Shown in pieces: positions 1-28,338 of a DNA stretch of 64,000 nt. The DNA lies in NCBI RefSeq assembly GCF_024700885.2, contig NZ_CP117016.1; one strand, 5' to 3'. Each line of letters starts with the position of its first letter. Position 1 is the stretch's first letter. The notes under the pieces were generated by a model. That model was given only the letters and a program-made list of their open reading frames with translations, had not been told where the DNA came from and ran no database searches. The stretch is from Escherichia coli (GTDB taxonomy: Bacteria; Pseudomonadota; Gammaproteobacteria; Enterobacterales; Enterobacteriaceae). The translations under genes were made by a program, and so were the position numbers.

Positions 1-1281
1 CTCCGTCAACTGTGCGGCAAGGTACTGGCGGTGAAACTGATCGCGGGGATCGCCTTCGGGTAGCATGTCCAGATATCGCAGCGCCGCCTCCAGACCCTGC
101 CCAGCAAAACAGGCTCTGGCTGCCTGCGATTCCTCACCGATTTGCGCAACCGGTGCAACTTTGCCGTCGGGCGAAGCTGCCAGCCATTGTTTCGTCTGCT
201 CACTGAGAAACGGTGTGCGGTCATTAAACAGCAGCCCGGTAAGCTGGGGCAGACGCTCAAGGAAGCGGATGACCTCATCGCGGATGGTGTCTGCCACCTG
301 TTTGTAACCCAGACGCAGTGCCGTCTGTGCAGAAAGACAGTGACCGTCCAGCCAGTAAGGAGCCAGCAATACGCTTTTCTCAACCTGCTGCCACAGCGCC
401 ATATCCGCGCTGGCAAGCCGGGACTGGTAATCCGCCACCATATCGGCAGAGACCGCAGCCAATGGGGTACGTCCATCGCTTTCCGCCTGGGGTGTACTGG
501 TGATGGATTGCCACAGGGCATGGCGGCGCAGGCGATAGCCCTGCGGCGAGTCCGGCTGGCGTTCACATAAAATAGCCGCCACTTTTAACAGCGTGTCGCG
601 CCAGGCTTTGTCGTCGTGACTGTCGATGGCGATTTGGGGAGCCGGAGCACTGGGTTGCGTCACGCCGCTTTCAGACGTGGCGGTGGTCTGTCGTGAACTA
701 TCGGAGGCCGCCGGAGTGGGGGCAGGAGCCGGTGCCGCACGATTAAACGCACGCTGGTACAGGGCAAAAAGATCATCGGTAGCCAGTGCCAGTTCCGGGG
801 CGTTATGTGACTGCCAGCACTGCGCCAGTTTCGCCAGTTCCCCTGACAGCGCGTCGCGCTGCGCTGTGGCGGCGTTCTGTGAAAAGCCTTCAATACCTGT
901 TTCGAAGCGTTTAATGACCTGGCTGGCAAAGCGTTTTTTATGTGCCATATTCTGCGGCGCAGCCACCGACCAGTAATGCTCCACATACAGCGCCAGCAGG
1001 CGCAATGCGAGATGAGGATCACCGGCGTGTTGCAGGGTTCTCAGCAGATGCGCCAGCAGACGAAAGTCCTTACTCTCCGAAGCCAGAATGACCAGCCCCC
1101 GGCGCTGGAGTTCCGGGATATCCAGTTGACTGTGGGCCAGAGATCCCAGTTTGACGATTTCGCCGTCGATATACTCCCAGTCCGGGTTGTCATCTTTCAG
1201 CGCCGATGCCAGTTTTTCTTCCGGCAGGTTTTCCAGCAGGTGCGTTATCCAGACATTCGGATCGCGTAAGTCCATTGCCAT
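1..1281 (-). CDS. tssA: T6SS TssA-like protein (ImpA N-terminal family); gene continues beyond window start
   Basis: Minus-strand ATG at 1281-1279; hand translation MAMDLRDPNVWITHLLENLPEEK... stays open to position 1 and contains SKDFRLLAHLL, resembling the ImpA_N signature. Absent from the ORF track because it runs off the edge. Lies directly upstream of the next T6SS gene. Confidence 0.5.
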   Translation of the reverse strand, partial: MAMDLRDPNVWITHLLENLPEEKLASALKDDNPDWEYIDGEIVKLGSLAHSQLDIPELQRRGLVILASESKDFRLLAHLLRTLQHAGDPHLALRLLALYVEHYWSVAAPQNMAHKKRFASQVIKRFETGIEGFSQNAATAQRDALSGELAKLAQCWQSHNAPELALATDDLFALYQRAFNRAAPAPAPTPAASDSSRQTTATSESGVTQPSAPAPQIAIDSHDDKAWRDTLLKVAAILCERQPDSPQGYRLRRHALWQSITSTPQAESDGRTPLAAVSADMVADYQSRLASADMALWQQVEKSVLLAPYWLDGHCLSAQTALRLGYKQVADTIRDEVIRFLERLPQLTGLLFNDRTPFLSEQTKQWLAASPDGKVAPVAQIGEESQAARACFAGQGLEAALRYLDMLPEGDPRDQFHRQYLAAQLTE

Positions 1282-1285
1282 ATTT

Positions 1286-2029
1286 TTATTCTCCCGCCCA
1301 GTGGCAGGCAACGCGCAGGGGGGCAATCGCCCTTGCCAGCCCGTCAATGTTAAAGGTCAGCTTTCCTGCGGCGTTATCTGCGCCGGTATCCACTGTCAGC
1401 GTTTTTGCGCCGAACAGTTGCTTAATTTCATCAATCCCGGACAGCCCCCGGCTGGACTCCAGCAGGGTGCCGTTCTCGCGCACAAACCAGTGGCTACGCA
1501 ATGCCCGGCTGTCGGCATTCAGAGTGACGGCGATATCATGGACATCCAGAGGGTGCATCAGCGCCACCTGCATCCGGGTGATATTGTCCACGCAACTGAA
1601 CATCAGCACCGGGCGCGGCGGAACATGGCCGATAGCCGGGGTGGTTATCACCACCGTCGGGCGCTCCCCCGGCACCTGCGTCACCAGCAGTTCTGTGGTG
1701 TTGCCCTCGCGGCGTTTTTCCTGCTCTGTGGCGCGGGTCCAGGCCTCGCCCACAAAACCGGCTTTGACCAGCGCCCCGTCAAACCCTGACGGGGACAGCG
1801 GTGCCAGCAGGCGGTCATAGCAGTCAAGCCGCTCCAGCGCCGCGGACTCCCGCCGACAGGACTGCATGGCCTGTGACGTGGCTGTCGCATCCGGCGGGGG
1901 CGTGGTGGCGACGGCGACCGCCACACCGGCCATTGACGATGTTTCTGCGGGCGCGGCAGTGGCGGGTAAGCCCGTCATCAGGCCCGCGATAAACCATCCT
2001 GTCTGCCGGAAAACGCGCAACCTGCTCAT
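1286..2029 (-). CDS. T6SS-associated exported protein, possibly VasI/TagO-like; function unknown
   Basis: 247-aa ORF with hydrophobic N-terminus (WFIAGLMTGLPATAAPA), placed between tssA-like and clpV with 3-5 bp spacing. Confidence 0.4.
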   Translation of the reverse strand: MSRLRVFRQTGWFIAGLMTGLPATAAPAETSSMAGVAVAVATTPPPDATATSQAMQSCRRESAALERLDCYDRLLAPLSPSGFDGALVKAGFVGEAWTRATEQEKRREGNTTELLVTQVPGERPTVVITTPAIGHVPPRPVLMFSCVDNITRMQVALMHPLDVHDIAVTLNADSRALRSHWFVRENGTLLESSRGLSGIDEIKQLFGAKTLTVDTGADNAAGKLTFNIDGLARAIAPLRVACHWAGE

Positions 2030-26885: not shown

Positions 26886-27026
26886 GGAAAGATCACGTAA
26901 CGCTGCTTTTTTGTACTAAGTAATTCGCATTTTATGTTTAAAAATTGAGATATTCCTCATTACCTAAAGCTGTTTTTTATTGCTTATACATGATCAAATA
27001 CTCCTTACATAATTAAGGAGAACAAA

Positions 27027-28163
27027 ATGGAGCTTAAAAAATTGATGGAACATATTTCTATTATCCCCGATTACAGACAAGCCTGGAAAGTGGAAAATAA
27101 ATTATCGGATATTCTACTGTTGACTATTTGTGCCGTTATTTCGGGTGCGGAAGGTTGGGAAGATATAGAGGATTTTGGGGAAACACATCTCGATTTTTTA
27201 AAACAATACGGTGATTTTGAAAATGGTATTCCTGTTCACGATACCATCGCCAGAGTTGTATCCTGTATCAGTCCTGCAAAATTTCACGAGTGCTTTATTA
27301 ACTGGATGCGAGATTGCCATACTTCAGATGATAAAGACGTCATCGCAATTGATGGAAAAACACTCCGGCATTCTTATGACAAGAGTCGCCGCAAGGGAGC
27401 GATTCATGTCATTAGTGCGTTCTCAACAATGCACAGTCTGGTTATCGGACAGATCAGGACGGATGAGAAATCCAATGAGATCACAGCTATCCCTGAACTT
27501 CTTAACATGCTGGATATTAAAGGAAAAATCATCACAACTGATGCGATGGGTTGCCAGAAAGATATTGCGGAGAAGATACAAAAACAGGGCGGTGATTATT
27601 TATTCGCTGTAAAAGGAAACCAGGGGCGGCTAAATAAAGCCTTCGAGGAAAAATTTCCGCTGAAAGAATTAAATAATCCAGAGCATGAGAGTTACGCAAT
27701 TAGTGAAAAGGGTCACGGCAGAGAAGAAATCCGTCTTCACATTGTTTGCGATGTCCTTGATGAACTTATTGATTTCATGTTTGAATGGAAAGGTCTGAAG
27801 AAATTATGCGTGGCAGTCTCCTTTCGGTCAATAATAGCAGAACAAAAGAAAGAGCCAGAAATGACGGTCAGAGATTATATCAGTTCTGCTGATTTAACCG
27901 CAGAGAAGTTCGCCACAGCAATCCGAAACCACTGGCACGTGGAGAATAAGCTGCACTGGCGTCTGGACGTGGTAATGAATGAAGACGACTGCAAAATAAG
28001 AAGAGGAAATGCAGCAGAATTATTTTCAGGGATACGGCACATCGCTATTAATATTTTAACGAATGATAATGTATTCAAGGCAGGGTTAAGACGTAAGATG
28101 CGAAAAGCAGCCATGGACAGAAACTACCTGGCGTCAGTCCTTGCAGGGAGCGGGCTTTCGTAA
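27027..28163 (+). mobile_element. ISAs1-family (H-repeat associated) transposase gene; element ends not resolved
   Basis: 378-aa ORF of the H-repeat/ISAs1 transposase type commonly found beside Rhs elements; low GC; a second partial copy of its 3' end lies at ~28256-28310. Confidence 0.7.
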
Positions 28164-28338
28164 TCTTGCCCTGGCTTTATTATCGAATTCGGTGACCGCC
28201 TTGACGGTCACTTCTGAGAAAGGCATTTACACAGAATGGTAAACAGACTCACAGAAACTACCTGGCATCAGTCCTTGCGGGGAGCGGGCTTTCGTAGTCT
28301 TACCCTGACTCTCCCCCGGCCCTAAACACAACCCCCAC

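Follow-up and report, generated by a model that had tools for sequence, protein, structure and literature searches.

The first 28,351 nucleotides (nt) of the Escherichia coli DNA analyzed here very probably represent the right-hand three quarters of a 36.6-kb island which extends from the tRNA-Asp gene aspV to the yafV stop codon and is an old, derived insertion. The stretch comprises 64,000 nt of contig NZ_CP117016.1 (assembly GCF_024700885.2) and is referred to as the window. The island encodes a type VI secretion system (T6SS) of the E. coli T6SS-2 class as well as Rhs proteins. Its label as subtype i1 is a prediction from near-identity to loci that are classed as i1 in the literature. An earlier note on this DNA had placed a T6SS-Rhs island directly to the left of yafV-ivy-fadE, and this is borne out by gene content, coordinates and synteny. 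The aspV T6SS-2/Rhs island, its variability, and its erosion in K-12 and other lineages are already published, as is the structure of Rhs elements with a GC-rich core and an AT-rich tail.

Three genomes match parts of the window closely. AST240 is 100% identical over window positions 1-25000, has one mismatch in the first 30,239 nt and diverges at 43349. Strain 1190 is identical over 6000-43349, and MLI114 is 100% identical over 42000-64000. Gene calls are from the RefSeq/PGAP annotation of these near-identical genomes and from our own family searches (NCBIfam, Pfam).

Delimitation of the island

Both junctions were defined by synteny with genomes that lack the island. When an occupied locus is aligned to an empty one, homology covers aspV plus 6 nt, is then lost, and returns at window position 28352. 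This point lies within yafV, 13 nt from its 3' end, and about 40 nt to the right of an H-repeat remnant. The right edge had been expected between the H-repeat and yafV, at 28338, which is only about 15 bp off. The island-specific DNA comprises 36,584 bp (10530-47113 of the occupied comparison locus L001) in place of a 104-bp spacer in sequence type 131 (ST131). In the empty sites of ST131 strain 4224 and of GPEC709, aspV is followed by the yafV 3' end after 98 bp. The C-terminus of YafV reads RLW before the stop codon in the window, and TFR or KLH in empty-site genomes.

To the left of the window, MLI114 carries tssM, vasL, a second hcp, a yafU-like pseudogene, ykfM, a yafT-like gene and aspV. 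The gene for the membrane-complex protein TssM had been presumed to lie beyond position 1, and it is indeed found there, at window positions -3674 to -240 (its end is 240 bp left of position 1). According to the MLI114 annotation, aspV is at -8317 to -8241, so that the left edge of the island is 8.2 kb outside the window.

Of the features commonly looked for in tRNA-associated islands, adjacency to a tRNA gene (aspV) and patchy presence among strains are found, while an integrase and flanking repeats are not. The annotation from aspV to yafV contains no gene for an integrase or excisionase. No 9-mer or longer word is common to the right junction and the aspV flank, be it as flanking direct repeats or as a partial aspV copy at the right end.

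States of the locus in the E. coli population

The states of the locus were counted, by BLAST coverage thresholds, in 5,426 complete E. coli genomes. A near-complete island (at least 80% of window positions 1-25000 in one place) was found in 1,936/5,426 genomes. Another 549/5,426 carry, at the same site, a divergent allele (at least 80% of its T6SS core, 68-80% identical). A K-12-type deletion junction is present in 371/5,426, and the aspV-yafV site is empty in 757/5,426, with two independent queries resulting in an equal count. The gene order is therefore not universal in the species. The T6SS core of either allele was matched in 2,948/5,426 genomes.

The exact cargo is rare. Positions 1-25000 are matched with an identity of 99% or above in only 9 records, and a coverage of 80% or more for positions 26000-30000 is reached in only 40 genomes. 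The segment from ISAs1 to yafV (from about 26880 rightwards) is common to many more genomes.

K-12 keeps aspV, yafT, ykfM and a truncated yafU. It then jumps to window position 27883, inside the ISAs1 transposase gene (pseudogene yafF), and continues into yafV. K-12 is a deletion of 34,028 bp that removed the whole T6SS and Rhs region, and is not an empty site.

Origin and age of the insertion

Species-representative genomes were scanned with YafV, and the loci obtained were analyzed by tblastn and ARAGORN. The E. coli representative and nine from other genera have aspV 76-126 bp downstream of yafV, followed by dnaQ and rnhA. The nine are Leclercia, Pseudocitrobacter, Pseudescherichia, Kluyvera genomosp. 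1, Siccibacter, Entomohabitans, Enterobacter sp. ENT03, 'Escherichia' sp. ESNIH1 and Enterobacteriaceae RIT691. The terminator hairpin of aspV, AAACGACGAA(A/G)GCCTGAATCA..., is common to these spacers and to the E. coli empty site. Because the tight adjacency and the homologous hairpin spacers are found across genera, we take the empty arrangement to be ancestral and the island to be an insertion. The horizontal acquisition that the earlier note had proposed is thus supported, the empty aspV-yafV site being shared with other genera.

The site between yafV and aspV is a general insertion hot spot across genera. In 12 further species, 0.7-8.3 kb are inserted there. Representatives of Enterobacter, Kluyvera, Superficieibacter, Klebsiella and Citrobacter have inserts of 4-8 kb between the two genes, none of which encodes a relative of the T6SS, Rhs or ISAs1 proteins of E. 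coli. This agrees with the description of aspV as an insertion hot spot (PMC2907695).

The right junction provides an estimate of age. The H-repeat remnant and the junction sequence are, in the alignment, common to E. albertii, K-12 and the B2-type allele, though not to ST131; the island is therefore considered old. The E. albertii locus codes for VgrG (83% amino acid (aa) identity) and an Rhs core (75% aa identity) beside yafV. The two E. coli alleles share only 68-80% nucleotide identity in their T6SS genes, compared to 96-98% in the flanks. This suggests that the alleles were imported or evolved separately for a long time, and that they were exchanged through recombination in the flanks.

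The alternative that survives best is that the T6SS-Rhs block is ancestral E. coli core DNA and that all strains without it are deletion derivatives. It would account for the wide distribution (the 2,948 of 5,426 genomes that match the T6SS core of either allele), for the right junction that is common to E. albertii, and for the host-like GC content from tssL to vgrG along with a host-like codon usage (except for the short tssE). Moreover, K-12 and many other strains are demonstrable deletion derivatives. We nevertheless consider this reading improbable. The hairpin spacer of about 100 bp in empty-site strains is homologous to that of Leclercia, Pseudocitrobacter, Kluyvera, Siccibacter, Pseudescherichia and others, and a deletion would not recreate it. 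In addition, alleles that differ by 20-32% between flanks that differ by 2-4% are hard to reconcile with vertical divergence in situ, and the same tRNA hot spot is also used by unrelated T6SS islands of Salmonella (PMC2907695).

Far less credible still is a recent and still mobile, integrase-driven element that targets tRNA genes. The island does adjoin a tRNA gene, holds a transposase gene and is variably present. However, the interval from aspV to yafV has neither an annotated integrase or excisionase nor shared 9-mers at its junctions, and its sole mobility gene is that of ISAs1 at the cargo end. Most structural genes are ameliorated, and E. albertii as well as an allele that has diverged by 20-32% have the same junction. 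Because its right junction is old, being common to E. albertii, and because integrase and flanking repeats are lacking, the island is neither a recent arrival nor self-mobile.

The comparisons show the following history. As a derived insertion, the island took the place of an ancestral spacer between aspV and yafV that measured about 100 bp. In the absence of an integrase and of flanking repeats, it most likely spreads and is lost via homologous recombination in the conserved flanks. The structural genes have been largely ameliorated to the composition of the host. The cargo between vgrG and the H-repeat turns over by displacement of Rhs C-termini and by insertion sequence (IS) activity, which results in a mosaic of GC-rich and AT-rich segments. 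Finally, the island has been eroded repeatedly, with the K-12 lineage having lost 34 kb, from yafU to the H-repeat.

Base composition

Fifteen core genes of the window served as reference for composition (yafV, ivy, fadE, lpcA, yafJ, dpaA, yafL, dinB, pepD, gpt, frsA, crl, phoE, proB and proA). Their mean GC content is 52.4% (standard deviation (sd) 3.0), and their mean GC content at third codon positions (GC3) is 57.8% (sd 4.6). The Rhs cores have 62.7-63.1% GC (z +3.5). The Rhs tails, both open reading frames (ORFs) downstream of them, and orf82, a fragment of the second tail, have 34-37% GC (z -5 to -6), and ISAs1 has 41.6% GC (z -3.6). Codon bias is also raised in the Rhs cores, tails, downstream ORFs and ISAs1. 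At about 28.2-28.3 kb, GC content steps from 42% in ISAs1 to 55.3% in yafV, and the discontinuity that had been expected at about 28.3 kb is thus present.

Among the T6SS genes, only tssA (59.0%), vasI (64.0%) and tssH (59.6%) exceed the reference mean by more than 2 sd. The other eleven (tssL, tssK, tssJ, tagH, tssG, tssF, tssE, tssC, tssB, hcp and vgrG) have 52-57% GC (|z| at most 1.6), and their codon bias is within the core range, with the exception of the short tssE (137 codons, z +2.7). The earlier note had described a mosaic of GC-rich T6SS genes and Rhs cores with AT-rich toxin tails, immunity genes and transposase. This stands for the Rhs cores, for all AT-rich components and for tssA, vasI and tssH, while it fails for the other eleven T6SS genes. 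Composition by itself would not flag most T6SS structural genes as foreign.

It could be argued that the GC mosaic merely reflects the intrinsic composite structure of Rhs elements and that the edge at 28.3 kb is that of an IS and not that of an island: strong deviations are confined to the Rhs cores, tails, immunity ORFs and ISAs1, and a GC-rich core with an AT-rich extension is textbook Rhs (PMC2935791), but while this is right about composition, and is taken up in our preferred explanation, the synteny evidence stands, with the H-repeat ending within about 40 nt of the junction set by empty-site genomes, so that we give this reading hardly any credence.

The T6SS apparatus

The T6SS genes span window positions 1-17864 (Table 1). 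All 13 core components, TssA to TssM, score above the NCBIfam cut-off. TssM, which matches TIGR03348 with 942 bits, and the final 131 nt of tssA are outside the window and were scored from a near-identical genome. Reading frames are intact according to the annotation of identical or near-identical genomes, and the apparatus of this strain looks intact.

The minus-strand operon runs from tssB to tssA and continues with tssM, vasL and the second hcp outside the window. It would specify the secretion machine, with TssJ, TssL and TssM as membrane complex, TssE, TssF, TssG and TssK as baseplate, TssB and TssC as sheath, TssA as cap and assembly factor, and ClpV as recycling ATPase. The plus-strand operon would provide the Hcp tube, the VgrG spike and the PAAR-Rhs effectors, the tails of which would be freed in target cells. 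In sibling cells, the AT-rich C-terminal toxin tails would be neutralized by the small immunity proteins encoded downstream. These roles are established T6SS and Rhs biology.

The two operons diverge from an AT-rich intergenic region (14332-15027). We presume that this is a promoter and silencing region and likely an H-NS site, by analogy to related loci. A scan for the sigma-70 promoter consensus resulted in 5 sites in this region, compared to 3.7 expected from shuffled sequences, which is no enrichment.

The small ORF between tssB and tssC, annotated as hypothetical, appears to be a vestige of the 5' end of tssC, as judged from its similarity to TssC. It is perhaps a scar of recombination between T6SS alleles.

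Table 1. Features of the T6SS-Rhs island and of its right flank. Coordinates refer to the window.
Feature	Coordinates	Strand	Evidence and remarks
tssA	1-1281	-	3' 131 nt cut by window edge; TIGR03362, 500 bits on full gene
vasI (T6SS-associated protein)	1286-2029	-	Pfam VasI PF11319, E 1e-52; GC 64%
tssH / clpV ATPase	2026-4791	-	TIGR03345, 1117 bits
tssL (DotU)	4800-5561	-	TIGR03349, 216 bits
tssK baseplate subunit	5566-6897	-	TIGR03353, 454 bits
tssJ lipoprotein	6900-7424	-	TIGR03352, 134 bits
tagH (FHA-domain accessory protein)	7421-8701	-	TIGR03354, 340 bits
tssG baseplate subunit	8726-9808	-	TIGR03347, 341 bits
tssF baseplate subunit	9772-11622	-	TIGR03359, 560 bits
tssE baseplate subunit	11626-12039	-	TIGR03357, 112 bits
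tssC sheath large subunit	12046-13521	-	TIGR03355, 703 bits
Small ORF between tssB and tssC (apparent tssC vestige)	13590-13796	-	47% identity over 32 aa to TssC residues 63-94, E 1e-7
tssB sheath small subunit	13831-14331	-	TIGR03358, 171 bits
Divergent intergenic region between tssB operon and hcp-vgrG-Rhs operon	14332-15027		696 bp, 33% GC (0.330)
hcp (tssD) tube protein	15028-15546	+	TIGR03344, 207 bits
vgrG (tssI) spike protein	15756-17864	+	TIGR03361, 626 bits; Pfam Phage_GPD, Gp5_trimer_C, Phage_base_V
Rhs1	17931-21578	+	GC-rich core 17931-21098 (62.7% GC) and AT-rich 160-aa tail 21099-21578 (37.0% GC)
Presumed Rhs1 immunity gene	21591-22040	+	149 aa, hydrophobic N-terminus; 34% GC; directly after toxin tail
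Rhs2 pseudogene	22117-26347	+	Full-length N-terminus with DUF6531; broken; translations and frame analysis
Presumed Rhs2 immunity gene	26348-26746	+	132 aa; N-terminal hydrophobic stretch ending in Cys, lipoprotein-like; 34% GC
Vestige of another Rhs core 3' end (QYDDESELHYNWHRYYNPGQG)	26819-26884	+	Translation; cut by ISAs1 left end
ISAs1-family element (H-repeat)	26884-28176 (approximate)	+	Transposase 27027-28163; NF033564, 409 bits; Pfam DDE_Tnp_1 PF01609, DDE_Tnp_1_assoc PF13808
60-nt remnant of second, older H-repeat 3' end	28251-28310	+	Direct repeat, 92% identical to 28117-28176
Right junction of island	28311-28351		Includes last 13 nt of yafV; alignment and empty-site homology
yafV	28339-29109	-	First conserved flanking gene; present in 5,425/5,426 genomes
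ivy	29290-29736	+	Annotation
fadE	29779-32223	-	Annotation

The Rhs cargo

Positions 17931-26746 hold two Rhs genes, each with a toxin tail and followed by a small ORF. Their cores match RHS_core (NF041261), YD_repeat and Rhs_assc_core as well as the Pfam families RHS_repeat and RHS, and they have 63% GC (a length of about 3.7 kb is expected for a core). The end of a core is marked by PxxxxDPxGL, which has the canonical form DPLGL in Rhs2 and is followed by an AT-rich tail and a small ORF. At the boundary between core and toxin of Rhs1 (21066-21098), Ser replaces the usual Pro of DPxGL, a change that is common to the closest homologs. The H-repeat component of Rhs elements, an ISAs1-family element, is also present. 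Rhs elements are classically described as a GC-rich core that is extended by AT-rich sequence (PMC2935791).

The N-terminal PAAR-like/DUF6531 region, which is required for loading onto VgrG, is not intact in either gene, and neither protein reaches the threshold of the Pfam PAAR_motif family. Rhs1 scores 2216 bits against NF041261. Its residues 32-1056 correspond to profile positions 235-1261, and the first approximately 30 residues are matched in addition. Profile positions from about 35 to 234 (about 200 codons) have been lost in-frame, and with them DUF6531 and the larger part of the N-terminal PAAR-like region. PGAP annotates Rhs1 as 'missing N-terminus'. Rhs2 is interrupted by stop codons at 23560, 24302 and 26063 and by a frameshift at about 23.6-23.7 kb. 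The last of the three stops is within the toxin tail, of which orf82 (26099-26347) represents the 3' portion. The first fragment of Rhs2 matches RHS_core profile positions 1-479, and the PGAP comment is 'frameshifted; internal stop'. Both Rhs genes encoded in cis are thus damaged in this strain.

The two proteins are 92% identical in the 3' halves of their cores and about 70% identical in the 5' parts. Rhs genes that recombine typically show such a 5'/3' mosaic.

The 149-aa and 132-aa ORFs are presumed to confer immunity, in view of their position, their composition and the Rhs paradigm. Neither these two ORFs nor the reconstituted Rhs2 tail matched any family.

The Rhs1 tail has an HExxH motif that is invariant in nine homologs, and an EE located about 25 residues further on is also invariant. 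Its match to Peptidase_M91 is below the threshold (E 0.034), and no significant sequence match was obtained in Pfam, NCBIfam or PDB. Homologs of the tail are restricted to Rhs fragments from E. coli and Shigella, with no named family among them. The AlphaFold model is mediocre (mean predicted local distance difference test, pLDDT, 61). A Foldseek comparison of this model to PDB returned nothing at E of 0.001 or below, and the weak top matches were mostly zincins. That the tail is a metallopeptidase (zincin) toxin is a lead and not a finding. That the tail and the 21591-22040 ORF form an uncharacterized HExxH zincin-like toxin/immunity pair limited to E. coli and Shigella, and that the truncated Rhs1 can still be delivered, is a candidate function that we regard as rather doubtful.

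The ISAs1/H-repeat elements

The cargo is terminated by an ISAs1-family element. Its ends were estimated from the 60-nt repeat and from the points where matches of other genomes start; in many genomes, the match does not begin until 26876-26884. Convincing terminal inverted repeats were not revealed by a repeat search at these ends (about 26884 and 28176). It is the remnant at 28251-28310, and not the complete element, that corresponds to the copy kept beside yafV in K-12 (yafF), in the B2-type allele (MS20654) and in E. albertii. The 3' end of ISAs1 is duplicated 134 bp downstream, with 74 bp between the copies.

Comparison with known systems

The closest published systems are the T6SS-2 islands at aspV. 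The island of enterohaemorrhagic E. coli (EHEC) O157:H7 covers 95% of window positions 1-25000 at 92% identity. In EHEC EDL933, the 37-kb aspV T6SS island (z0250-z0268) is repressed by H-NS and is active in an hns mutant (PMC5363993). Islands of the T6SS-2 / subtype i1 class have rhs downstream of vgrG (PMC10711316; PMC7216683; PMC5422975). In the T6SS-2 locus of ST410 (clade A), rhsG is downstream of vgrG, and deletions between rhsG and tssM have been reported (Cummins et al., PMC10711316). In the mastitis-associated E. coli (MAEC) strain ECC-1470, the GI1 T6SS/1 is of subtype i1, which corresponds to E. coli T6SS-2; it is described as 'the most variable' region, beside repetitive rhs and upstream of Flag-2 (PMC5422975). 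The island in the window shares with the T6SS-2 aspV islands the site, gene order and orientation, an additional tssA-like gene (vasL) and an additional hcp, both at the left end, and the Rhs location after vgrG. It differs from them in its cargo, which here consists of two tandem Rhs genes with tails and immunity ORFs of their own, both of them damaged.

In strains of extraintestinal pathogenic (ExPEC) and adherent-invasive E. coli (AIEC), pathogenicity island (PAI) I is integrated at aspV (LF82, 536, UTI89 and avian pathogenic E. coli (APEC) O1; represented here by MS20654); that of LF82 has 35 kb. It shares with the island in the window the site, the yafT-like left junction, the H-repeat-remnant right junction, the order of T6SS genes and the two hcp genes. 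However, its T6SS genes have only 68-80% nucleotide identity, its cargo consists of DUF2169 and a PAAR-like protein instead of Rhs, and its tssB and tssC abut, without the tssC vestige.

The large cluster of Vibrio cholerae (vipA-vipB ... vasA-vasL) has the order tssB-tssC-tssE-tssF-tssG-FHA-tssJ-tssK-tssL-clpV-vasI-tssA-tssM-vasL, where FHA stands for the forkhead-associated domain gene, and this order is the same here. The family names VasI and VasL appear in the annotation of the E. coli cluster. In contrast to V. cholerae, the annotated E. coli cluster lacks vasH, the gene for a sigma-54 activator, and the effectors differ.

Wang, Zhao and Hill (1998) reportedly described an RhsG element at minute 5.3 that was largely deleted from an ancestor of K-12. 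The 34-kb deletion in K-12, with yafF as H-repeat remnant, fits this account.

More distant are the Salmonella pathogenicity islands SPI-6 and SPI-20, likened here by description. They are T6SS islands beside the same tRNA gene, have a non-uniform GC content and lack obvious flanking repeats (PMC2907695). They differ in that their T6SSs belong to other phylogenetic groups and in accessory content (saf/tcf fimbriae in SPI-6).

In GPEC709, where the aspV-yafV site is empty, there is another T6SS (tssM-tagF-vgrG-DcrB-PAAR) together with ISEc1, which abuts a truncated dkgB (positions 1-12631 of that locus). The truncated dkgB is the place where the tRNA-Asp copy linked to rrnH is normally located. 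From this combination of T6SS and ISEc1, it seems that the end of the cargo is marked by an ISAs1-family element in at least two T6SS islands.

Other features of the window

A hicBA toxin-antitoxin pair (35748-36375) is located between yafL and the Flag-2 lateral-flagella cluster (36480-46812). The latter is interrupted, and identity to strains with an intact cluster stops at 43349. An IS1B transposase gene (43405-44102) lies within Flag-2, between a truncated sigma-54 regulator gene and a truncated fliL-like gene. The central Flag-2 genes are lost by an IS1-associated deletion. Of rtcB and prfH, only pseudogene fragments are present (49391-49945).

A second island (window positions 57838-64000) is located at thrW (tRNA-Thr CGU, 57838-57913). 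With an integrase gene (58078-59268), an AT-rich segment and a TOPRIM/DUF927 primase gene, it resembles a P4-like satellite. Just to the right of the window, MLI114 carries psu, ogr/delta and a retron St85 system. The possibility that the tRNA-Thr called by ARAGORN at 57838 is spurious was considered and rejected; it is thrW, located downstream of proA.

Assessment and implications

Several points weigh against our interpretation of the locus, or limit it. The population counts depend on BLAST coverage thresholds, and about 1,800 genomes are in none of the four states, having other partial forms. Eleven of the 14 T6SS genes resemble core genes in composition, which therefore does not independently support that the structural block is foreign. 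Within E. coli, change at the locus may have been gain of the island or regain of the empty allele by recombination. The Rhs cores in the window, possible members of the RhsG subfamily of Hill, have their best K-12 match in rhsD (85-87% identity). Intact reading frames are no proof of secretion. Rhs1, with its in-frame deletion, might still be functional.

With the limits given above, the island is now fixed to the base, between the aspV 3' end and a point 13 nt inside yafV, and current population frequencies are available for the four main states of the locus. The base composition of a gene is a poor lone marker when structural T6SS genes are concerned. An apparatus that looks intact is combined here with decayed Rhs effector genes encoded in cis, which matters when T6SS-mediated competition is inferred from the presence of genes.

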